Below, piece after piece: positions 19,424 through 50,942 of a stretch of DNA of 64,000 nt. The notes below the pieces were generated by a model. That model saw only the letters and a program-made list of their open reading frames with translations. It made no database searches and was not told the origin of the DNA. Each line of letters opens with the position of its first letter. Positions within the stretch are counted from its first letter, which is position 1. The translations under genes were made by a program, and so were the position numbers. This DNA comes from Candidatus Eiseniibacteriota bacterium (lineage in GTDB: Bacteria; Eisenbacteria; RBG-16-71-46), in NCBI GenBank assembly GCA_016223045.1, contig JACRPT010000004.1, positions 2,899 through 66,898 on the forward strand, given 5' to 3'.

Positions 19424-19627
19424 CTAGCCCGGTCTATTCATGAGCCCGCCGCCTGCGAGCGCGATCTGCACGCCATCCGCAGCGTCGTTCGACCGGCCGC
19501 GACCCACGCTTCGCGTGGGTGCCCCGCGACGTGTCACCGACACGACTCCGTCGCGGCCGGTCGAACTCCTTGCGGCTGCCGCGCATCTCGCACTCTCGGC
19601 TGGCGGTTCATGAATAGGCCGGGCTAG
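19424..19627. mobile_element. Correia-like MITE / palindromic repeat, copy 1 (204 bp)
   Basis: Terminal inverted repeats CTAGCCCGGTCTATTCATGA...TCATGAATAGGCCGGGCTAG. Nested internal inverted repeat GTTCGACCGGCCGC...GCGGCCGGTCGAAC. Roughly 90% identical to copy 2 at 30075-30257, apart from a central indel. Confidence 0.6.
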
Positions 19628-23550: not shown

Positions 23551-24048
23551 TCAGTTCCTCGCCCTGGCCACCCAGCGGGGGGCCGAATCGGTGGCCTGCC
23601 GGAGGATCAGGTTGAGCTGTGCGGCGTGGTGCTGCACGTGGCGCATGTTGTAGAGCAGCAGCTCGGCGACGCTGCCCTCGATTGATCCGAACCTGCGGCG
23701 TTCACCGGCTTTCCCTCCCGTCAAAGCCTCGATCGTCGCCCTGCACTTCCCGCGGCCGTGCTTGAGATAGGTGCAGAGCTCCTCCTTCGTGTATGGCCGT
23801 TCGGGCAGCAGCCCCGCCGGATCCAGCTCGTCGAGCGTGAAGGGTGGCGGTGGCGCGAATCCCTCGGCCGAGTCCGACAGGTAGAGGTCGAGGAAGAAGA
23901 GCGTGTGGAAGACCAGGTGCCAGAACTCCGGTCGCCGCGAGCGATCGCTCCACAGCCCGTCGGGACAGGCGAGTATGGCGCTCTCGAGCATGTCGATGGC
24001 GGCCCCGAACTGCCGCCAGAGGGCTGCCTGCCAGGTGGTGGTCATCTC
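23551..24048 (-). CDS. DinB/YfiT-like (DinB_2) family protein
   Basis: Start at the internal ATG (MTTTWQAALW...). Has the His-rich four-helix-bundle pattern of DinB-like proteins (H..F..L, HVQHHAAQL). Confidence 0.6.
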   Translation of the reverse strand, partial: EMTTTWQAALWRQFGAAIDMLESAILACPDGLWSDRSRRPEFWHLVFHTLFFLDLYLSDSAEGFAPPPPFTLDELDPAGLLPERPYTKEELCTYLKHGRGKCRATIEALTGGKAGERRRFGSIEGSVAELLLYNMRHVQHHAAQLNLILRQATDSAPRWVARARN

Positions 24049-24094
24049 GGGACTCCGGACTTGGGTGGATTCCTCATTCCGCACGTCTGGCAGA

Positions 24095-25342
24095 TCACGC
24101 CGACTCCCATAGGGCACGCACCGGCACGGCGTGCAGCCCATCGCCGAAGCTCGCGCTGGTCTCCCCGTCATAGAGCACCACGCCTCCGGCAAAGCGCCTG
24201 CCCGCCGCATCCTTGAGCTTGCGCAATCCCCGGAAGTCCGCCGCGGTCACGGTGGCCGCAGCCTTGACCTCCACGCCTGCCAGCGCGCGCGGGCCGCGTT
24301 CGATGACGATGTCAACCTCCGCGCCGTCCTTGTCGCGGTAGTGATAGAACGAGAAGGGCTCGTCATGCCAGCTCGCCTGTCGGCGCAGCTCCTGGAACAC
24401 GAAGGTCTCGAGAAGCTGACCCAGCAGGGGCCGATCCCCCGCGAGCGCGGCGGCATCCACCCCGAGCAGCGCACAGGCGAGTCCGGCGTCACCGAGGTGC
24501 AGCTTCGGCGTCTTGACGAGCCGGCTCAGGCGGTTGCTGTGCCAGGGTGCCAGCCTCTCCAACAGGAACACGCGCTCGAGAAGCGTGACGTAGTCGCGGA
24601 TCGTCGGCCGGCTGAGCTGGAAGGGCGCGGCCAGATCGGTCACGTTGAGCAGCCGCGCCGTGTGCGCCGCGGCGAGCCCGAGCAGCCGCGGAAGTGCGTC
24701 GAGCGAGCCGATGCGGGCCAGATCGCGGACATCGCGCTGGACCAGCGCGTCGAGGTAGTCGCGGTACCACGCAGTGCGCCGTCGTCCGGCCGGCCGCGCC
24801 AGCGCTGCCGGATACCCACCCGCGGCGATCCGTTCGGCGAGCTGGCCGGACAGCCGCTCGGTCCGCCGGGTCTTGAAGCCGCCCTCGAACAGGGCGTCCA
24901 GGAAGCGCGGCGGGCGCCTCACCAGCTCGCACTGTGCCAGCGGGTGCAACCGCAGGATCTCCATGCGACCCGCCAGCGAGTCCGCGAGCTTCGGCACCAG
25001 CAGCACGTTGGACGAGCCGGTCAGCATGAAGCGACCCGCCGCGCGCTTGCGGTCCACCGCAGTCTTCAACGCGGTGAAGAGCGCCGGCACGCGCTGCACT
25101 TCGTCCAGGATCGCCCGCTCCGGCAGATCGGCGACGAAGCCCATGGAATCCGCCTCGGCTGCGCCTCGCGCGACGTCGTCGTCGAAACTCACGTAGGTGT
25201 AGCCCCTGGGATCGCCCACCATGCGGGCGAGCGTGGTCTTGCCGCATTGGCGCGGGCCGTGGATCAGCACGACCGGCGAATCGGCCAGCGCCTCGGTCAG
25301 GCGCGGCCCGGCGTAGCGCGGGTAGAAGGGGGTCTCAGGCAC
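24095..25342 (-). CDS. AAA-family ATPase with DUF4143 (COG1373-like)
   Basis: Walker A GPRQCGKTT, Walker B-like ILDEVQ, and a C-terminal DUF4143-like region. The 5' end is uncertain. A GTG near 25342 is proposed because no ATG is available. Confidence 0.65.
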   Translation of the reverse strand: MPETPFYPRYAGPRLTEALADSPVVLIHGPRQCGKTTLARMVGDPRGYTYVSFDDDVARGAAEADSMGFVADLPERAILDEVQRVPALFTALKTAVDRKRAAGRFMLTGSSNVLLVPKLADSLAGRMEILRLHPLAQCELVRRPPRFLDALFEGGFKTRRTERLSGQLAERIAAGGYPAALARPAGRRRTAWYRDYLDALVQRDVRDLARIGSLDALPRLLGLAAAHTARLLNVTDLAAPFQLSRPTIRDYVTLLERVFLLERLAPWHSNRLSRLVKTPKLHLGDAGLACALLGVDAAALAGDRPLLGQLLETFVFQELRRQASWHDEPFSFYHYRDKDGAEVDIVIERGPRALAGVEVKAAATVTAADFRGLRKLKDAAGRRFAGGVVLYDGETSASFGDGLHAVPVRALWESA

Positions 25343-25434
25343 CGGCCGATCGTAATCCCTGCGTCCGGCCAATCGCAAGGTTGAGGTTCGGCCAATCGAA
25401 AGGATCGTGGTCGGCCGATCGCAAGGCGAGGTTC
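25341..25434. repeat. Four tandem direct repeats of about 23.5 bp with the core CGGCC(A/G)ATCG(Y/A)AAGG
   Basis: ccggccgatcgtaatcc / ccggccaatcgcaagg / cggccaatcgaaagg / cggccgatcgcaagg, at a regular spacing of about 23-24 bp. They sit at or overlap the 5' end of the ATPase gene. Confidence 0.55.
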
Positions 25435-25862
25435 CCGGCGACTTGCAGCCGCGCGGGCGGTGAAGGCCGTCGCGGGCGCCCCGCGAGGCGGCGGCGCGAC
25501 GAGGGGGTCGGTCGTCAGATGACCTCCCAAGAACCGCTCGGCCCCCTTCACCAGCAGCTCTCAGGAGATGAGCCTGGCAGCAGCGCGTCGCGCGGGATGG
25601 CGCGGGCAGGGGATCCATGGATGTTCGCGAGGCCACGCTGGATCAGCGGGCGGGATGCACCCATCCCAGAGTGATCCACACAAGCCAAACTGCGCCACGT
25701 CTCGCGGAGCTCCGAGCATCCACGCACCCGCGGTATCCCACTCCGCCGCTTTTCGCTTCGGCGCCGCCCGCGCCGCGCGCTATACTGCGGCCCTCCCGGC
25801 GACCCGAGCACCCCCGCATCCCTCTTCGCGGGCCGCACAGCGCGGCCCGACAGGTCCCACGC

Positions 25863-28334
25863 ATGCACTCGCGACCCACCCGCTTCCTCGAGGGGCCGCC
25901 CGGCCCTGCCGACGCCGGCTCGCTCGCCGCCTGGATCGCCGACCTCGCGCATCGTCCCGAGAACCGCGGCGCGCTCGCGCACTGGGAGACGCTGCCTGCG
26001 CGTCCCGCGCGCTGCGGCGAGCTGTCGTTCCCGCTGCCCTCGGCGCTCGCCGAGGCGCTGGCCGCGCGCGGCATCGAGCGGCTCTACACGCACCAGGTGC
26101 AGGCCATCGAGGCGCTGCGCGGCGGGCTCGACACGGTGGTGGTGACCGGCACGGCGAGCGGCAAGAGCCTGTGCTACCACGTGCCGGTGCTGGAGACGCT
26201 GCTGGTCGAGCCGGGCGCGACCGCGCTCTACCTGTTCCCGACCAAGGCGCTGGCGCAGGACCAGCTCAAAGGTCTGGTGCGGCTCGCCTCCGGGCATCCC
26301 GATGTGCTGAAGCGCCTGGTTGCGGGCGTCTACGACGGCGACACGCAGCCGGCGACGCGCCGCAAGCTCAGAGACGGCGCGAACCTCATCCTCTCCAACC
26401 CCGACATGCTGCACCAGGGCATCCTGCCCTACCACCCCAAGTGGGCGCGCTTCCTGCGCGCGCTGCGCTACGTGGTGGTGGACGAGATCCACGCCTACCG
26501 CGGCATCTTCGGCTCGCACGTGGCGAACGTGCTGCGCCGGCTCGAGCGCGTGGTGCGCCACCTGGGCGGTGACGCCCGCTTCGTGATGTGCAGCGCCACC
26601 ATCCGCAACCCGCAGGAGCTGGCCGAGCGGCTGACCGGCCGCGCGGTGACGGTGGTGGACGACGACGGCTCGCCGCGCGGCGAGAAGCACTTCGTGTTCT
26701 GGAACCCGCCGCACACCGACGGCGCGCGCGTGGAGCGCCGCTCCTCGAACGTCGAGGGCTGCGACCTGCTGACCGGTCTGATCGAGCGCGGCGCGCAGGC
26801 GCTGGTGTTCACCAAGTCGCGCGTCGCGGCCGAGCTGGTCTACCGCTACGCGCGCGAGCGGCTGGAGCGCGTGCGGCCGGGGCTCGGGGAGGCGATCCGC
26901 CCGTACCGCGGCGGCTACCTGCCGGAGGAGCGCAGGAAGATCGAGCAGGCGCTGTTCTCGGGCGAGCTGCGCGGCGTGGTGAGCACCAACGCGCTCGAGC
27001 TGGGCGTGGACATCGGCGGGCTCGACGCGGTGGTGATGATCGGCGCGCCGCCGACGCTCGCCAGCCTGTGGCAGCAGGCCGGGCGCGCCGGGCGCGGGCC
27101 CCGCCGGGCGCCCGGCGGCGCGGAGGCCGGGGCGGGTCCCCGCTCCGCGCCCGGTGACGCGGCCGCCGAAGCGGGTTCCCGCCCCGGGGAGGTCGCGCCC
27201 GCGCTGGCGGTGCTGGTGGCCTACAACGAGACGGTGGACCAGTACCTGATGCGCCACCCCGGCTACTTCTTCGGGCGCTCGCCCGAAGCGGCGGTGATCG
27301 ATCCGCACAACCCCTACATCCTGGCGCAGCAGCTGGCGTGCGCGGCCTACGAGCTGCCGCTCGAGGTGGACGACGCGGTGACCTTCGGTCCGCAGGCCGC
27401 CGCGATCCTCGCCGCGCTCGAGCAGGCAGGGGAGATGCGCGCGATCGATGGGCGCGCCTACTGGGCGCAGACCGAGTTCCCGGCCGCGCGCGTCAACCTG
27501 CGCACCATCTCGGACAACACCTACACCATCATGAACGCCGCCGCCGACAACGCGGTGATCGGCACGGTGGACGCGATCAGCGCGCTCGAGCTGGTCTATC
27601 CCGAGGCGATCTACCTGCACGAGGGCGAGACCTGGTTCGTGAAGAGCCTGGACCTGGAGCAGAAGACGGCCTGCGTCGAACCGCGCCGGGTGGACTACTA
27701 CACGTCACCCGTGCTCGACACTTCGATCCGGGTGCGCGGCACGCTGGAGAGCCGCGCCTGGCGCGGCGAGCAGGTGACGCTCGGCGAGCTGACCTACTCG
27801 TGGCAGACCGTGGCGATGAAGAAGGTGAGGTTCCACTCCTTGGACGCCATCGGCTACCACCCGCTCGATCTGCCGCGGCTCACCCTCGACACCGCCGGCT
27901 TCTGGCTCGCGCCCGGCGAAGCGGCGTGGAGCGCGGTGGCGCGCCGCGGCCTCAACCCGGTCGAAGGCCTGATGGGCGTGCGCAACCTGTTCATGACCCT
28001 GCTCGCCATGCTCAGCATGTGCGACCCGGCGGACCTGGGCGGCAAGCTCGACTCGTCGAACCTGGGCCGCCCGGCGCTGTTCATGTTCGACCGCTATCCC
28101 GGCGGGCTCGGCTTCTGCGAGCAGGGCTACGCCCGCCTCGACGAGCTGGCCACCGCGGCGCTCGAACACCTCGAAGCCTGCGACTGCGAGTCCGGCTGCC
28201 CGGCCTGCGTCGGGCTGCCGACGCTATGGCCCGCCCAGCAGCAGGACCCCGACCTGATGCACGGACGCGAGATCCCGGGCAAGGAAGCGGCGCGCGTGCT
28301 GCTCCGCCACTGGCTCGCGAGCGAGGACCGATGA
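25863..28334 (+). CDS. DEAD/DEAH-box (DExH) helicase with a C-terminal DUF1998 Cys4 domain (MrfA/YprA-like)
   Basis: Walker A GTASGKS, a DExH box (VVVDEIHAY), helicase C-terminal motifs, and the C-terminal CDCESGCPACV cluster. Start at the internal ATG 25863. The upstream part of the track ORF is junk. Confidence 0.8.
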   Translation: MHSRPTRFLEGPPGPADAGSLAAWIADLAHRPENRGALAHWETLPARPARCGELSFPLPSALAEALAARGIERLYTHQVQAIEALRGGLDTVVVTGTASGKSLCYHVPVLETLLVEPGATALYLFPTKALAQDQLKGLVRLASGHPDVLKRLVAGVYDGDTQPATRRKLRDGANLILSNPDMLHQGILPYHPKWARFLRALRYVVVDEIHAYRGIFGSHVANVLRRLERVVRHLGGDARFVMCSATIRNPQELAERLTGRAVTVVDDDGSPRGEKHFVFWNPPHTDGARVERRSSNVEGCDLLTGLIERGAQALVFTKSRVAAELVYRYARERLERVRPGLGEAIRPYRGGYLPEERRKIEQALFSGELRGVVSTNALELGVDIGGLDAVVMIGAPPTLASLWQQAGRAGRGPRRAPGGAEAGAGPRSAPGDAAAEAGSRPGEVAPALAVLVAYNETVDQYLMRHPGYFFGRSPEAAVIDPHNPYILAQQLACAAYELPLEVDDAVTFGPQAAAILAALEQAGEMRAIDGRAYWAQTEFPAARVNLRTISDNTYTIMNAAADNAVIGTVDAISALELVYPEAIYLHEGETWFVKSLDLEQKTACVEPRRVDYYTSPVLDTSIRVRGTLESRAWRGEQVTLGELTYSWQTVAMKKVRFHSLDAIGYHPLDLPRLTLDTAGFWLAPGEAAWSAVARRGLNPVEGLMGVRNLFMTLLAMLSMCDPADLGGKLDSSNLGRPALFMFDRYPGGLGFCEQGYARLDELATAALEHLEACDCESGCPACVGLPTLWPAQQQDPDLMHGREIPGKEAARVLLRHWLASEDR

Positions 28335-29094
28335 CCACATCCGAATGGCCCGTCGCCTTCTTCGACGACGACTACCTGAAGATCTACCGCCCGATGTTCT
28401 CGCCCGAGGTCACCGGGCGCGAGGTCGCCTTCATCGAGTCGGCGCTGGCGCCGCCCGCGGGCGGCGCGCTGCTCGACCTGGCCTGCGGCTACGGCCGCCA
28501 CGCCATCGGTCTCGCCGGGCGCGGCTACCGCGTGACCGGCGTGGACTTCAACCCGCGCTACCTGGCGGTCGCCGGGCAGGACGCGGCCGCGGCCGGCGCC
28601 GCCGTCACCTGGACGCAGGGCGACATGCGCGAGCTGGCCTTCGACCGGGCGTTCGACGGCGTGTACTCCTACTTCACCTCGTTCGGGTACTTCTCGGACG
28701 CCGAGAACGAGCGCGTCATCGCCGGCGTGGCGCGCGCGCTCAAGAGCGGCGGGCGCTTCCTCCTGGACATGACGAACCGCGACTGGATCCTCACCCACCC
28801 GCAGCAGCGCATCTGGAACCAGCTCGCGGACGGCTCGCTGCTCATGGAGGAGGTCTCGCTCGACCTGGTCCGCTCGCTGGTGATCACGCGCCAGATCCAC
28901 ATCGCCCCGGCGGGCGGCACGCGGCTGACCAAGGAGTACCAGTTGCGCGCCTACACCTGCGCCGAGCTGACCGCGCTGTTCGCGCGCCACGGGCTCGCGG
29001 TGCGCGAGGCGTGGGGCGGCGCCGACCGCAGCGCGTACTCCACCGAGAGCCGCCGCCTGGTGCTGCTCGCGGTGCGCGAGGGCGGCGATGGCTG
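28331..29094 (+). CDS. Class I SAM-dependent methyltransferase (type 11/12-like)
   Basis: Motif I LDLACGYGRH and the post-I acidic residue (VDF). There is no DPPY or PC motif, so it is probably not a DNA methyltransferase. Its ATG overlaps the helicase stop (ATGA). Confidence 0.75.
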
Positions 29095-29942
29095 AGCCGG
29101 ACGCGCTGCGCGCGCGGCTGGGCGAGCTGGCGCGCGGGCGGCGCGCGCGCATGGGGCCGGCGGCCGATTCGAGTGCCGCGCCGGTGCACCGCGGTGGCGC
29201 GGACCACGCCGCGCCCGCGGTGGGCGTCGAGGAGTTCCTGCCGGGTGGCGAGTGGAGCGACGGGCGCGGCGCGGTCTACGTGCACGAGCGCCTCCGCTCG
29301 GAGATCGAGCAGCCGCGCCCGTACTGGGGGTGGCTCGAGCGGCCGCCCGCGCACGAGCCCGAGCTGGGAGCGCTGGCGGAGGCGGGGCTCTCACGCGCGC
29401 TCTTCCTCGACCTCGAGACCTGCGGGCTCGCCTCGAGCCCGGTGTTCCTGGCCGGCACCATGCACTGGAACGGCGCGGACTTCGTGCTGCGCCAGTACTT
29501 CGCACGGCACTACGGCGAGGAGGGGACGCTGCTGCGCGCGCTCGACCAGGCGGTGCGCGGCTTCGAGTTCCTGGTCACGTTCAACGGCAAGTCCTACGAC
29601 GCACCGTTCCTCGCCGGCCGCTCGGTGGTGCACGGCGTGCCGCTGGCGCTGCCGCCGCGCCACGTGGACCTGCTGCATGCCGCGCGCCGCCGCTGGAAGA
29701 TCGAGCTGCCCGACTGCCGGCTCACCACGCTCGAGCTGCACGTGTGCCGCCGCCGCCGCGTCGGCGACGTGCCCGGCGAGGAGGTGCCCGGGCTCTACCA
29801 CGACTACGTGAAGCGCGGCGATCCCTACCGGCTCATCCCGGTCTTCCACCACAACCTGCTCGACGTCGTCACCATGGCCGAGGTGCTGCGCGCGTTGTGC
29901 GCGGCCGTGCGCCCGCGGCGGAGCGCGCGCGCCGGGACCTGA
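29088..29942 (+). CDS. DEDD-type 3'-5' exonuclease, RNase-H-like (YprB/MrfB-like)
   Basis: Exo I LFLDLETCGL, Exo II TFNGKSYDAPFL, and Exo III YHDYV...HHNLLDVVTMAEV. Its ATG overlaps the methyltransferase stop (ATGGCTGA). Confidence 0.7.
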   Translation: MAEPDALRARLGELARGRRARMGPAADSSAAPVHRGGADHAAPAVGVEEFLPGGEWSDGRGAVYVHERLRSEIEQPRPYWGWLERPPAHEPELGALAEAGLSRALFLDLETCGLASSPVFLAGTMHWNGADFVLRQYFARHYGEEGTLLRALDQAVRGFEFLVTFNGKSYDAPFLAGRSVVHGVPLALPPRHVDLLHAARRRWKIELPDCRLTTLELHVCRRRRVGDVPGEEVPGLYHDYVKRGDPYRLIPVFHHNLLDVVTMAEVLRALCAAVRPRRSARAGT

Positions 29943-30074
29943 GGCGCGCTGCGGGATGCGGCGCGGGGGATTGCGGGCTGCACGGCCGCGGGTCGCGCGC
30001 CCGACGGGCGCACCGCAACCGCCGCACGTTGCGCAGGCGCGGCGCGCGTGGCTCGCGGGTTGCAAGGTCCGGCG

Positions 30075-30257
30075 CTAGCCCGGTCTATTCATGAGCCCGC
30101 CGCCTGCGAGCGCGATCTGCACGCCATCCGCGGCGTCGTTCGACCGGCCGCTTCCTCGACGTGTTGACAACACGACTCCGTCGCGGCCGGTCGAACTCCT
30201 TGCGGCTGCCGCGCATCTCGCACTCTCGGCTGGCGGTTCATGAATAGACCGGGCTAG
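30075..30257. mobile_element. Correia-like MITE / palindromic repeat, copy 2 (183 bp)
   Basis: Same terminal inverted repeats as copy 1, with a perfect right end. The centre contains the palindrome CGTGTTGACAACACG, which carries a TTGACA hexamer. It lies 44 bp upstream of the pilin-like gene. Confidence 0.6.
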
Positions 30258-30301
30258 GAACCCCTCGGCTTCATCTCCCTCGGAAGGAGTGGAGCCAGTC
30301 C

Positions 30302-30784
30302 ATGGACCTGGAACGCGGGTTCACGCTGCTTGAGCTGCTCATCGCCGTGGTGATCGCCGGCGTGCTCGCCGCGGTCGCGGTGCCCCGGTATCACGCCATG
30401 ACCGAGCGCGCGCGCGAGGCCGCGACGCTCGAGAACATGCACGCCTTCCGGCTCGCGGTCGAGGGCTGCGCGGTCGCCAGCGACAGCGGGTCCTACCCGG
30501 CATCGGCGGCGGAGGTCGCTGCGCAGCTCGCGCCCGGGTTCGCCAATCCCTTCGACGGCGGGCAGGGCGAGCACCGGGCCTGGGAGAATCTCCAGGCGCC
30601 TCCGGCCACGAACGCGCCCTATCCCGGCATCATCCGCTACGCCAGCTCGGACGGTGGCGCGGGCTACGAGATCGCGGCATGGGGCGCGCACGCCCCGGTC
30701 GGCGGCGCGCTCGACGCAGCGGCGGCGTCCGCGGCGAAGTCGGGGCCCGGCAGCGGCCGGCGCCGTCCCGCGTACACGCGATGA
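30302..30784 (+). CDS. Prepilin-type N-terminal cleavage/methylation-domain protein (type IV pilin / pseudopilin-like)
   Basis: GFTLLELLIAVVIAGVLAAVAVP, the class III signal and hydrophobic helix. GGAAGGAG ribosome-binding site upstream. Confidence 0.75.
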   Translation: MDLERGFTLLELLIAVVIAGVLAAVAVPRYHAMTERAREAATLENMHAFRLAVEGCAVASDSGSYPASAAEVAAQLAPGFANPFDGGQGEHRAWENLQAPPATNAPYPGIIRYASSDGGAGYEIAAWGAHAPVGGALDAAAASAAKSGPGSGRRRPAYTR

Positions 30785-31083: not shown

Positions 31084-31683
31084 ATGGCTACCGGCGAGGA
31101 TCGGCACATCAAGTGCGTGGATTGCGGTGAGGAGTTCCTGTTCACCGCGGGGGAGCAGGCGTTCTACGCCTCGAAGGGTCTGACCAACGCGCCCACCCGG
31201 TGCAAGCGCTGCCGCGAGCAGCGCAAGAACCAGCGCCCGGGCGGTGGCGCTCGCGCAACCGAGTCGGCGGGTCGGCACGGCGGTTCCGAGCGCCCCATGC
31301 ACGACGCCGTGTGCTCCGAGTGCGGAGCCCCCACGCAGGTGCCGTTCGTGCCGGTCGGTGACCGGCCGATCTACTGCAAGACCTGCTACCAGTCGAAGCG
31401 CAGCCCGAAGGGCGGGCGCCGCGAGCGCGCGGCGCCGGCGCCGGCGGCCGCGACCACGAGCGCGGGCGGCTCCTCCGGCCGCAGCCAGGGCGCGGTCAAG
31501 TGGTTCAACGAGTCGAAGGGGTTCGGCTTCATCCAGGATGACTCGGGCGAGGACATCTTCGTCCACTTCTCGGCCATCCAGTCGGACGGGCTCCGCACGC
31601 TCGCCGAGGGCGACCGCGTGGAGTACGACGTCGTTCCGGGAGACAAGGGCAAGCAGGCGGCCAACGTCGTCCACGTCCAGTGA
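31084..31683 (+). CDS. Cold-shock-domain protein with two N-terminal CxxC-x17-CxxC zinc ribbons (zf-trcl-like)
   Basis: The C-terminal CSD has the RNP1 and RNP2 motifs ([17 protein letters not shown]). The N-terminus carries two repeats of C..CG..F.F...EQ.FY..KGL...P.RCK.CR. GGAGG ribosome-binding site. Confidence 0.8.
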
Positions 31684-46832: not shown

Positions 46833-49800
46833 CTACGCCCCCGCGGGCCGCGGCGCGGGCGGGCCGAACGGCTCGATCTGCGGACCGGCGGGCTCCTTCG
46901 CCGCCGGCGCTTCGCCGGACGGCGGCTCGGGCTCGGCCGGCTTCATCGGCTCGAGCTTCTCGCCGCGCAGCACGCGGTTCATCTGGTCCCCGTCCAGCAC
47001 CTCGCGCTCGAGCAGCGTGCCCGCGAGCAGGTGCAGCTTCTCGAGGTTCTCCTTGAGCACCTTGAGCGCGTGGTTGTAGGCGCCCTCGACCAGCGAGCGG
47101 ACCTCGGAGTCGATCTTCTCGGCGGTGAGCTCGGAGTAGTCCTTGTGGGTCGCGATCTCCTTGCCGAGGAAGACCATCTCCTCCTTCTTGCCGAAGGTGA
47201 GCGGGCCGAGGTTCTCGCTCATGCCCAGCTCGCAGACCATCTTGCGCGCCAGCGCTGTGGCGCGCTCGATGTCGTTCGCCGCGCCGGTGGTGAAGTGGTT
47301 GAAGATCAGGAACTCCGCAGCGCGACCGCCCATCATCATCGCCAGCGTGCGCAGCAGGTCCTCGCGCGAGCGCGAGTAGCGCTCTTCCTGCGGCACGTAG
47401 CTGGTGATGCCGAGCGCGCGCCCGCGCGGGATGATGCTGATCTTGTCCACCGGGTCCGCGCCCGGCAGCAGCCAGGCGATGAGCGCGTGCCCCGACTCGT
47501 GGTACGCGGTCGAGCGGCGCTCGTCCTCGGACATCACCAGGCTCTTGCGCTCCATGCCCAGCATCACCTTGTCCTTGGCGTCGGCGAAGTCGACCGCGGT
47601 GACCTTCTTGCGGTTGCGCCGCGCCGCCAGCAGCGCCGCCTCGTTCACCAGGTTCGCGATGTCGGCGCCCGCCAGCCCCGGCGTCGAGCGCGCGATCTGC
47701 TTCAGGTCCACGTCCTCGGCGAGCGGGATCTTGCGGGTGTGCACCTTGAGGATGCCCTCGCGCCCGCGCACGTCGGGCCAGTCCACCACGATCTGCCGGT
47801 CGAACCGCCCGGGCCGGAGCAGCGCGGGGTCGAGCACGTCCGGCCGGTTGGTGGCCGCGATCATGATGACGCCCTCGTTCGAATCGAAGCCGTCCATCTC
47901 GACCAGCAGCTGGTTCAACGTCTGCTCGCGCTCGTCATGCCCGCCCCCGAGCCCCGCGCCGCGGTGCCGGCCGACAGCGTCGATCTCGTCCACAAAAACA
48001 ATGCAATTATGTACGATCAAGTTGTTGGCAATGAAGCAGTTATGTCTATCGAGACACAGATCGTATACGGGCTCAGACGACGGCGTGCGATTGATACTCT
48101 GGATCCTCGACCACAGGATGGCGGAGTCCGCGAGATCTCTGAGTCGCTGGAACTCCGGAGTGACGTCAATCTCCCGACTCTGGCGCCAGGATTCCATCTC
48201 TTCTACGACAGTCTGCAGGCTGCCTCGGGACGGCGAAACGAGACCTCGTTCATATGCACTCACGACGTGGCCGCGGGAGAACGCACGCTGGCCCATGCGC
48301 ATGGACTGCCTCGCGCTCCGGATGAGGCCAGCTGCCGGAACCGAGTCCAATCGCGACGATGATGTCTCGCGCTGCATGAGGAGGCATACGAGGTCATGGA
48401 GCTTCGAGAGCTTCTCGGGATGTTCGCTTCCGACCCGGCTCGAGAACCTCAGGAGCATATCCCGACCGGTTACGACGATGTTCCCCTCGCGTCCTTCGCC
48501 TACGGAGCGGGGCCGGCTGGTGACGATGCCCGCGCGGAGCAGGGCGTCGCGGATCAACTGGTTGGCCTCCTGTTTCCAGGCCGAGATGATTACCTGCGGC
48601 GCTCGCTCGCTGAATCGGACGCATCCGTCACCGTCAAAGACTCCGCGCAGCCAGGAACCGATGATAGGGGCTGGCATCTCGAGTATCCGCGACTGCAGGG
48701 TCCGGAGCGCGTCGCAGAGGAGCCGGTTGTTGATGTAGGTCGTGTAGCAGTCCTGCAGCGTCACCGGATGAGTACCCTGTGGCAGGACGATCTCGTAATG
48801 CTTCTTGTTCAGGTGCCGCTTGGGCTCGTAGTCGAACTCCGCCATGCAGATCTCGCGAACGCGCTCATGCAGGGCGAGCTGGGTATTGACGAACTGGATG
48901 GCGCGCTCTCCCATCTGTCCGAAGTACCCATCGGACGCGATCAGCCCACACAGGTACGCAAGCTCGTCATCGATCTCGAATGGGATATGGTCCAGGTAGG
49001 ACGAACCGAAACCGCCGACTCCGATGGACAGCCGCTCGATGTCACGGTGGTACTGCCCGATGTCCTGCCGGATCTCGAACAGCTTCGGCCGCCGCGTGCC
49101 GGGCCTGTGCCCCCTCAGATGAACGACCACGTCCTCGGCCGGCAACAGGTCGTAGAACAGCGGCAGTGGCGACGGCGTCGTCGGGATCACCCGCGGCACC
49201 GCCACGTATTCGCCTTCCTTCAGCTCGTCCGCCCGCACCCACTCCATGCCGTCGCCGCGCAGCACCGGGAAGAGGTGGTTCCCCGTCGCCTTGATGGCGC
49301 TCGTGGACGTCGTGACCTCGAACAGCTCGGTGGACGGCTTGCACGTGATGCCGATCACGGTCGCGTCGTCGAGACGGTAGTCCTCGGCCATGGCCGGCAC
49401 GCGCACGCCGACCATCTGGTTCTCGAACATGTCGCGGATCGCCACCTGCCGCCCGCCGCTCAGCGTGACCATCGTGTCGCCGGTCAGGCACGGCGCGTTC
49501 CGCTTCGCCTGCTCGAAGAGATCACGGACCCTGCTGTTGTGGAGGAGCACCGGCCTTTCACCGCCGAAGAACGCCTCGTTCTCGCAGCCGCACAGGTCGT
49601 ACACGAAACCGTCGAAACGCCGAACTGTGACGGACTCGATGAGGGGGTTCTCGGGCGCCGCCGACCACCCGAGCCGGACGATCTGCGTGGCATCGGCCCC
49701 GCCCGGCGGCATGCCGACGAGTCTGTCACCCTCCCTGAGCTCACGAGCGGCGACTGCCTGCATCTCGCAACCGCGGGACGTGAAGACACTGTGGTCCGGA

Positions 49801-50939
49801 GTCGTCCGGAGGACGGAACCCGCACAGCGGATCTCCACGATCTCGGTCGCGCGATGGCGGAACACTCCGCGGACAGCGCTCCACTTCCGCACACGCATGC
49901 GCGTGGCGACAGCACCTCCCTCATCAGCAGGCTCCGCCTCCTCGAACCCCAGCGTTTCCACTCCGCGCACCGGGATGACGAACCCCTCCGTATCGCCCTC
50001 GTAGTAGCGGTCCACGAACGCGCCGATCTCCACCAGCTCGGTGCGGCCGTCGTGGCGCACGAGCACGGGCGTGTCACCGGTGACGGACGCCCCCACCCCC
50101 ACGAACATCTCCACGAAGTCCGACCCGCTCATCGAGAAGAAGGGCACGGCGGCCTCGCCGGCGACGGCCTTCGCGAGCAGGGTCTTGCCCGAGCCCGGGG
50201 GCCCGAGCAGCAGCGCGCCCTTCGGGATCCGGCCGCCCAGGCGCTGGAACTTCTGCGGCTCCTTCAGGAACTCGATGATCTCCTGCAGCTCCTGCTTGGC
50301 CTCCTCGCAGCCCGCCACGTCCTTGAACGTGACCTTGGGCTGGCTCTCGAGCAGCACGCGCGCCTTGGTCTTGCCGAACTTGAGCGCCGCGCTCCCGCCC
50401 GACTGCATCTGGCGGATGAGGAACAGCCACGCGCCGAAGATGATCACGAGCGGCAGCCAGGAGAGCAGCACCGAGACCCAGTTGAAGCCCGCCGGGCGGA
50501 CGTCGATCTCGGCGTCCTTGTTCTTCTCCCAGACCTTGTCCGGCAGGTTCGCTCCGTCGCCGACGATGTTCGTCTTGAACGCCTTGAACGACACGTCCTG
50601 CCCGTTGACCCGCAGCGCCGAGGGGCCGTTCAGCTCGCCGGTGACGCCGTTCTCCATGATCTGGAGGCTCTTGATGTTCCCGTCGCGCACCTCCTTCATG
50701 AACCGCGTGTAGGAGATCTCCGCGCGCTGGGGCGCCATGATGTTCCCCTGGTACATGCGGTAGGCCACGAGCGAGAGCAGCACGATGAGCGCCCAGAACG
50801 CCAGCGTGCGGAACGGCCGGCCCGCGGGCATGGGCACCTGCGGGCGGCGCGACGGACCGCCGCGCGGCGCGCCGCGCCGGCTGTCGCGATTGCGGCTGTC
50901 GTCAGAGCCGGGCCGCGGGTCCCGACGGAACGAGCTCAC
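46833..50939 (-). CDS. ftsH: ATP-dependent zinc metalloprotease FtsH interrupted by two in-frame inteins (1,368-aa precursor)
   Basis: The ORF reads through both inteins without a stop. With the two insertions removed, the N-terminal transmembrane region, Walker A GPPGSGKT, pore loop MFVGVGA, Walker B, second region of homology, the HESGH zinc site and the C-terminal helical domain align with canonical FtsH. Confidence 0.85.
48006..49490 (-). mobile_element. Intein 2 in ftsH (495 aa; Cys1...HN, +1 Cys) with a LAGLIDADG homing-endonuclease domain, inserted between ...KRNAP and the Walker B motif (C)IVFVDEID
   Basis: Block [11 protein letters not shown], block B ATGNHLF, LAGLIDADG motif 1 [14 protein letters not shown], motif 2 [14 protein letters not shown], and block G LIVHN|C. 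Its GC content and codon usage are clearly lower than the host's. Confidence 0.75.
49536..50087 (-). other. Mini-intein 1 in ftsH (184 aa; Ser1...HN, +1 Ser), inserted immediately after the pore-1 loop FVGVGA
   Basis: Block [11 protein letters not shown], block B TPDHSVFT, and blocks F/G VYDLCG...VLLHN|S. No endonuclease domain. Its GC content is host-like. Confidence 0.7.
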
Positions 50940-50942
50940 GGA

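Follow-up and report, generated by a model that had tools for sequence, protein, structure and literature searches.

What could a methyltransferase be doing when its gene lies between those of a DNA repair helicase and the partner exonuclease? The question is raised by a 64,000-nucleotide stretch of DNA (hereafter the window) from a metagenome-assembled genome (MAG) of Candidatus Eiseniibacteriota, or Eisenbacteria (GenBank assembly GCA_016223045.1, contig JACRPT010000004.1, positions 2,899 to 66,898). Three overlapping genes in the window encode, in this order, a superfamily 2 (SF2) DExH helicase, a class I S-adenosylmethionine (SAM)-dependent methyltransferase (MT) and a DEDDh exonuclease (Table 1). 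A first-pass annotation of the window, made from its letters, had likened the two outer proteins to MrfA (YprA) and MrfB (YprB) of Bacillus subtilis and had supposed that the unit might be a repair or defence module. Findings discussed below incline us toward the view that the locus is a vertically inherited chromosomal MrfAB excision-repair operon combined with a small-molecule MT, the two activities responding jointly to electrophilic genotoxins.

The helicase and exonuclease pair

Membership of the MrfA/YprA family was judged by the features set out by Burby & Simmons (bioRxiv 10.1101/426304), all of which were found in the helicase: a DExH core, a winged helix, an MZB/DUF1998 domain bearing zinc-binding cysteines, and overall similarity to YprA. 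Pfam searches returned DEAD (2e-29), Helicase_C (2e-15), WHD_HRQ1 (3e-12) and MZB/DUF1998 (PF09369; 5.8e-20). When compared with PDB sequences, the helicase matched B. subtilis YprA/MrfA (6znp) at E 7e-174 and 583 bits, while the next matches were Lhr-type helicases at 1e-31. A Walker A motif (GTASGKS) and a DEIH box are readable in the translation, and the MZB cysteines (MCD ... CDCESGCPAC) fall in the same alignment columns as their YprA counterparts (MCD, CPCHDGCPSC). The Walker A motif, DExH box and C-terminal cysteine-bearing DUF1998 that had been read from the letters were therefore recovered by Pfam, by translation and by alignment with YprA, and the profile search for DUF1998 that the first-pass annotation had recommended found that domain in the form of Pfam MZB. 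The score of the helicase against TIGR03817, 704 bits, lies under the cutoff of that model (874).

The exonuclease likewise resembles its B. subtilis counterpart. Pfam identified RNase_H_2 (PF13482; 5.5e-30), and the sole match to a solved structure was B. subtilis MrfB (8un9; E 3.8e-18). Residues D108, E110, D171, H255 and D259 are invariant in an alignment of ten Eisenbacteria sequences and B. subtilis MrfB, whose catalytic DEDDh residues are D107, E109, D172, H258 and D262 (PMC11194089). The catalytic motifs are thus complete, with all five DEDDh residues present, as had been read earlier. The N-terminus consists of a conserved helix (ALRxRLGELxRxRRA) plus a basic linker, and the protein ends ~20 residues past the last catalytic Asp, with no TPR domain detected by Pfam or by alignment. 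Possession of a TPR domain is not among the homology criteria used by Burby & Simmons (bioRxiv 10.1101/426304). With respect to a further mark of MrfB, being encoded beside and downstream of mrfA, the exonuclease gene shares an operon with the helicase gene, with only the MT gene between them, and the two are direct neighbors in 16 relatives that lack the MT gene.

Likeness to MrfAB, the helicase-exonuclease pair for mitomycin C repair in B. subtilis, therefore extends to the domain set of the helicase (DExH core, winged helix and MZB cysteines), to the unusual DEDDh type of the exonuclease with its five catalytic residues, and to the sharing of an operon by the two genes, which overlap directly in the MT-less Eisenbacteria relatives. 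Unlike the B. subtilis system, the Eisenbacterial operon carries an MT gene between the pair, motif VI of its helicase is followed by a low-complexity insert, its exonuclease is 284 residues long without a C-terminal TPR domain, whereas MrfB has 413 residues and a TPR domain, and its host is an uncultured bacterium represented by a MAG. MrfAB function is reported to be species-specific, and cross-species complementation failed even for the P. aeruginosa homologues (bioRxiv 10.1101/426304). Taken together, these comparisons show, at the level of sequence, that the flanking genes encode MrfA and MrfB homologues with intact catalytic motifs; the pairing proposed by the first-pass annotation is upheld by all of the sequence criteria open to testing.

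Helicases of this family also occur in anti-phage systems. A 2025 survey of the YprA family distinguishes a repair branch ('YprA only' or MrfB-associated) from defence branches (DISARM, ARMADA, Druantia and Dpd) with PglX-like methylases. The defence systems resemble the locus in that their helicase, too, carries DUF1998 and falls in the same superfamily, and in that some of them include a methyltransferase and a nuclease. Unlike the locus, they possess PglX/DrmM DNA methylases, extra helicases and phospholipase D (PLD) nucleases, and they reside in mobile, patchily distributed defence islands. The combination by which DISARM/ARMADA membership is recognized, a PglX/DrmM methylase with a BrxHII/SNF2 helicase, DrmB or a PLD nuclease, was not found at the locus. 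PADLOC returned generic domain-level matches (the helicase to BrxHI, DruE and DrmA, the MT to mad2) and assigned no defence system to it. The locus belongs to the repair branch of the YprA family. The 2025 survey mentions no methyltransferase in this branch and, in agreement with the earlier surmise that an MT-containing MrfAB variant is uncharacterized, no description of one was found.

Conservation and loss of the methyltransferase gene in Eisenbacteria

Two scans bear on whether the three genes belong together. A genome-collection scan seeded with an MT alignment recovered 70 loci, nearly all of them from Candidatus Eisenbacteria MAGs, with MT identities of 58-93%. Neighboring genes in these loci were identified by tblastn with the three window proteins, and junctions were analyzed in the same loci together with three long contigs (L001-L003). 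A metagenome-contig scan was seeded with the exonuclease, and so was independent of whether an MT gene was present; it yielded 80 loci, 70 of which had room upstream. The seed alignment of the second scan included B. subtilis MrfB, but Eisenbacteria-specific peptide patterns were selected, so that all 80 loci represent one lineage and the frequencies given below hold for that lineage.

The exonuclease gene lies directly 3' of the MT gene without exception, in 54/54 genome-scan and long-contig loci as well as in all 54 MT-bearing metagenome loci (108/108 checkable cases). The two genes overlap by 4-14 nt at 44 of the 54 measurable junctions (by exactly 4 nt in 32) and are spaced by +1 to +30 nt at 8 others; the remaining 2 junctions comprise a start-codon miscall and a frameshifted assembly (L071). 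An apparent MT-exonuclease fusion in the latter (L071:6001-7784) was rejected, since in this long-read MAG the MT frame is shifted at three points and lacks a stop codon ahead of the exonuclease gene, which points to a likely indel assembly error. No MT-exonuclease fusion was found among the top 120 MT clusters or 150 cluster representatives.

The helicase gene lies directly 5' of the MT gene in most MT-seeded loci, and this junction is variable: a 4-nt overlap was present in 15 of 59 loci, while spacers ranged up to 756 nt. Inserts of 3.6-5.4 kb separate the helicase and MT genes in 5 loci, whereas no insert was seen at the MT-exonuclease junction of any locus. The inserted genes are unrelated, and encode a peptidase, a glyoxalase, DUF1697, additional methyltransferases and, on the opposite strand, a 1,700-residue protein. 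In two of the loci (L016:5005-5808 and L032:4413-5270) a further class I methyltransferase gene, different from the conserved MT gene, is part of the insert and lies just 5' of the latter. The genes flanking the trio vary from locus to locus. Since the three-gene synteny on which the first-pass annotation had staked its reading recurs in more than 100 independent loci, a chance arrangement is ruled out.

The exonuclease-seeded scan also revealed loci without the MT gene. Whereas the MT gene lies directly upstream of the exonuclease gene in 54 of the 70 metagenome loci, it is absent from the other 16, where the helicase gene is followed by the exonuclease gene. The latter two genes overlap by 4 nt in 10 of these 16 loci, and the length and N-terminus of the exonuclease are unchanged. 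The MT-less loci are dispersed on a neighbor-joining tree of the exonuclease, most of them being equally close to MT-bearing loci and to each other (the tree is without bootstrap support), a pattern that fits several independent losses better than a single event. No free-standing MT copy was found in the MT-seeded genome scan of Eisenbacteria, and none of the MT homologues outside Eisenbacteria was linked to a YprA helicase or an MrfB-like gene among the loci examined. Taken together, these results show that the trio is conserved phylum-wide in Eisenbacteria and that the MT gene has been repeatedly lost. Because MT-less loci occur, and are scattered on the exonuclease tree, the canonical helicase-exonuclease pair is the core unit and the MT an optional accessory to it.

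Affinities of the methyltransferase

Pfam searches with the MT returned Methyltransf_25 (8e-21) and Methyltransf_11 (7e-16), which are generic small-molecule domains; no DNA-methylase domain was detected by Pfam, and the protein has no PglX-like features. It is as strongly conserved as both of its partners, with a mean column identity of 70% and 88 of 254 residues invariant in 13 sequences, including those of an N-terminal WPVAFFD..Y..IY motif.

When a profile of the MT family was compared with PDB sequences, NmbA of Chlorobaculum tepidum (CT1040; 9ri2) scored E 2e-41 and 145 bits, PH1305 (1wzn) 102 bits, and the rest at most 62 bits. Biochemical work has established that NmbA methylates the amine nitrogen of the cysteine in bacillithiol, and the enzyme is characterized by a VLDIAxGxG motif together with an aromatic SFGYF loop that stacks against adenine (PMC12719100). 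In a BLASTP comparison the MT was 33% identical to NmbA along the whole length (E 1e-34), the cap region being covered as well as the Rossmann core. The LLDLACGYGRH and SFGYF sequences of the MT align with VLDIACGAGRH and SFGYF of NmbA, placing both characteristic motifs in the MT, and the two proteins have VLDxACGxGRH, SFGYF and an N-terminal W..FD..YL in common. NmbA is thus the best characterized homologue of the MT, although many uncharacterized clusters are nearer to the latter and NmbA has no known link to repair genes.

Structural comparison gave a related picture. An AlphaFold2 model of the MT (mean predicted local distance difference test, pLDDT, 86.8) had 1wzn, CcbJ, NmbA, YunM, CypM and 3d2l as its top Foldseek matches, and the characterized proteins among these are natural-product or peptide amine N-methyltransferases with a beta-strand cap. 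CcbJ, CypM, YunM, PH1305/1wzn and 3d2l, whose caps have 4 strands, share the Rossmann-plus-beta-cap architecture with the MT (Foldseek E ~1e-20 to 1e-21, TM score 0.75-0.8); they differ from it in being 21-26% identical and in acting on substrates (antibiotic precursors and the N-termini of ribosomally synthesized and post-translationally modified peptides, RiPPs) that have no counterpart in the locus. The best NCBIfam match of the MT was a daptide RiPP methyltransferase. A specific kinship to MitM, the methyltransferase of the mitomycin pathway, was considered and rejected, as its score of 54 bits, compared with 145 for NmbA, reflects generic class similarity.

Together, the domain matches, motifs and predicted fold indicate that the MT does not belong to the methyltransferases of DNA or RNA, and that it is probably an NmbA-family small-molecule N-methyltransferase directed at a thiol or an amine. 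Of the description 'small-molecule/RNA-type' given to it by the first-pass annotation, the former half agrees with NmbA and with the fold neighbors, while the latter found no support. The accompanying suggestion of a methylation step in repair or defence likewise went unsupported, the MT falling in the NmbA/amine N-methyltransferase group.

An exhaustive search of 1.84 billion cluster representatives returned 962 clusters at E <1e-30, of which the Eisenbacteria clade makes up approximately one; the next relatives are 40-48% identical. Of the relatives outside Eisenbacteria whose phylum could be assigned, the closest comes from a genome of Armatimonadota (48% identity). In that genome (GCA_054641855.1; L154:7001-9761) the MT homologue adjoins genes for a BshA-like GT4 glycosyltransferase and a BshB-like PIG-L deacetylase, and the locus may be a divergent cluster for a bacillithiol-type thiol that includes its own N-methyltransferase. 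Many of the relatives in the 40-48% range are Myxococcota-type proteins, and in a group of such homologues (P0127, P0129, P0134, P0152 and P0150; also L063:4408-6753) the MT domain is C-terminal in proteins of 450-890 residues, whose N-terminal 250-640 residues are disordered and Pro/Ala/Glu-rich and contain no Pfam domain.

Genomic setting and possible roles of the methyltransferase

Features of the window are collected in Table 1. The coordinates, overlapping junctions and motifs of the first-pass annotation all proved correct when the open reading frames (ORFs) were read again, and an exact-sequence look-up found that the NCBI gene calls on the 74.8-kb contig of this MAG (MBI5708776.1 to MBI5708778.1) have boundaries identical to those of the three ORFs. 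Both of the purine-rich, Shine-Dalgarno (SD)-like motifs sit within the respective upstream gene. A promoter and terminator scan together with Rfam over positions 25300-30400 detected nothing above chance, which speaks neither for nor against a single transcript.

Table 1. Positions and descriptions of features in the window
Feature	Position	Strand	Description
MrfA/YprA-type SF2 DExH helicase	25863..28334	+	823 aa; RecA1, RecA2, winged helix, OB-CON-MZB/DUF1998 with Zn-binding cysteines
Class I SAM-dependent methyltransferase (MT)	28331..29095	+	254 aa; NmbA-like / natural-product amine N-methyltransferase type; beta-strand cap domain
MrfB/YprB-type DEDDh 3'-5' exonuclease core	29088..29942	+	284 aa; conserved N-terminal helix, basic linker, no C-terminal TPR domain
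Helicase/MT junction	28323..28334	+	SD-like GAGGA at 28323-28327, then ATGA start/stop overlap at 28331-28334; read from sequence
MT/exonuclease junction	29078..29095	+	SD-like GAGGG at 29078-29082, then 8-nt overlap ATGGCTGA at 29088-29095; read from sequence
DinB_2 protein and AAA_14/DUF4143 ATPase	23551..25636	-	Directly upstream of the operon
Treble-clef/cold-shock protein	31084..31683	+	Two treble-clef zinc fingers and a cold-shock domain; downstream of the trio, followed by DUF885
MITE-like element, first copy	19424..19627		Palindromic; 20-nt terminal inverted repeats (CTAGCCCGGTCTATTCATGA), inner hairpin
MITE-like element, second copy	30075..30257		As first copy; just 3' of the exonuclease stop codon
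FtsH gene split by an intein	46833..50942	-	FtsH_ext, AAA and Peptidase_M41 domains; intein with LAGLIDADG homing-endonuclease domain; 1,369-codon ORF

The surrounding genes have housekeeping or envelope functions (HflX, M24 peptidase, rhomboid, TonB, Big_5 surface proteins and a pilin-like protein, as well as DUF885, beta-oxidation genes, FtsH, HPRT, CdaA and FolP), which shows that the context is core chromosome. The DinB_2 and ATPase genes found upstream of the operon are absent from the loci on L001-L003; the DinB/YfiT-like superfamily includes thiol S-transferases. Downstream, the treble-clef/cold-shock protein followed by DUF885 also occurs beside the trio on two distant Eisenbacteria contigs (L001:9898-10539 and L002:9904-10689), a recurrence that suggests a wider conserved neighborhood. 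The two copies of the element resembling a miniature inverted-repeat transposable element (MITE), each ~185-205 bp long, are ~97% identical apart from a 21-nt indel, with none expected by chance, and bracket a 10.4-kb segment that contains the operon. G+C content of the window is ~73%, and its sole marked dip (0.64 at 48-50 kb) coincides with the intein in the FtsH gene.

We hypothesize that the MZB helicase would unwind damaged DNA in the 3'-5' direction at a bulky adduct, as work on B. subtilis leads one to expect, and that the coupled DEDDh exonuclease would, by homology to B. subtilis MrfAB, degrade the displaced lesion-bearing strand independently of UvrABC. The MT, whose gene is almost always translationally coupled to mrfB and is predicted to be co-transcribed with it, would methylate the amine of a small molecule rather than a nucleic acid, our best guess for the substrate being a low-molecular-weight thiol akin to the antioxidant bacillithiol. 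Co-expression would then put modification of a thiol, or detoxification, alongside adduct repair against electrophilic genotoxins.

Several observations weigh against this joint response to genotoxins, or against parts of it. At 33%, identity of the MT to NmbA is below the 35% network threshold of PMC12719100, such that strict orthology is unproven, and at least 150 cluster representatives (clustered at 50% identity) score above NmbA against the MT. Although BshA is by far the best NCBIfam match of the Armatimonadota GT4 protein, over its full length, the score of 187 bits is below the 274-bit cutoff; likewise, the best matches of the PIG-L deacetylase, BshB2 and BshB1, reach ~60 bits, below a cutoff of ~190. 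Other relatives of the MT outside the phylum have unrelated neighbors. A tblastn search with the Armatimonadota BshA-like and BshB-like proteins found no bsh match in 1.18 Mb of partial-genome sequence, a result that is uninformative about whole genomes, and no literature linking bacillithiol to mitomycin repair, or Eisenbacteria to bacillithiol, was found. Repeated loss was read from a tree without bootstrap support, and the invariable pairing of the MT and exonuclease genes may be due to the inertia of two overlapping genes and not to selection.

The last point leads to the alternative that survives best, which we regard as possible but doubtful: that the MT is a passenger, a housekeeping small-molecule methyltransferase such as an NmbA orthologue that was inserted between mrfA and mrfB in the ancestor of Eisenbacteria and retained since overlapping genes are hard to separate. 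MT homologues outside Eisenbacteria are indeed free-standing and in unrelated contexts, the operon persists without the MT gene in 16 of 70 loci, and the spacing of the helicase and MT genes is loose, with inserts tolerated between them. The distribution of NmbA, which is patchy and often lacking in bacillithiol-producing phyla (PMC12719100), also matches repeated loss. A passenger is harder to reconcile with MT-exonuclease adjacency in all 108 loci despite freely rearranging flanks and helicase-MT spacers, with the lack of a free-standing copy in the genome scan, or with conservation of the MT that equals that of its partners.

We consider it unlikely, though a little less so than the protein-directed role discussed next, that the MT works as a genuine third member of the MrfAB pathway in Eisenbacteria, either in physical association with MrfB or by acting on a lesion or repair intermediate that is linked to a thiol or bears an amine. 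A protein-directed role, in which the MT would methylate MrfB or MrfA (for example at the alpha-amine of the N-terminus, the position that CypM modifies in peptides) or would structurally replace the missing TPR domain of MrfB, strikes us as improbable. Tight translational coupling of the MT and exonuclease genes is consistent with such a role, as are the lack in the exonuclease of a TPR domain, which B. subtilis MrfB has (PMC11194089), the peptide N-terminal methyltransferase CypM among the fold neighbors and the daptide RiPP methyltransferase as best NCBIfam match; moreover, authors of the MrfB structure paper expect that MrfB has unknown partners (PMC11194089). Opposing it, exonuclease architecture is the same in MT-less loci, where the N-terminal helix is kept and no TPR domain has been regained, the sequence of the MT is nearest that of a thiol N-methyltransferase and not a protein methyltransferase, and no fusion of the two proteins was seen in the clusters searched. 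Finally, a DISARM- or ARMADA-like system, in which the MT would mark self DNA or RNA and the nuclease attack what is unmarked, is very improbable despite the domain-level PADLOC matches, because the MT lacks a DNA-methylase domain or PglX-like features, the helicase is in the MrfB-associated repair branch, no second helicase, DrmB or PLD nuclease is present, the locus is single-copy and vertically inherited amid housekeeping genes across the phylum, and clean loss of the MT with the nuclease retained, which would be lethal in a restriction-like system, is incompatible with restriction-modification-like logic.

MrfAB is a recently recognized, UvrABC-independent pathway whose lesion, mechanism and partners are still open questions. 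The helicase-exonuclease pair and the MT family are each known, while the three-gene arrangement appears to be undescribed and confined to one uncultured phylum. Should the link between the MT and the pair be merely historical, the locus would be an ordinary lineage-specific operon variant in that phylum. Were the MT instead a third component, low-molecular-weight thiol chemistry would be tied directly to the excision repair of natural-product DNA adducts, in a three-enzyme route without described precedent, and the MT might give a lead to the partners of MrfAB and to the lesions that MrfAB recognizes. The loci also supply more than 100 paired MT and exonuclease sequences for modeling of a complex. 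An MT that is coupled to MrfAB phylum-wide and yet repeatedly lost represents a natural experiment, and suggests a testable thiol or amine chemical context for MrfAB.

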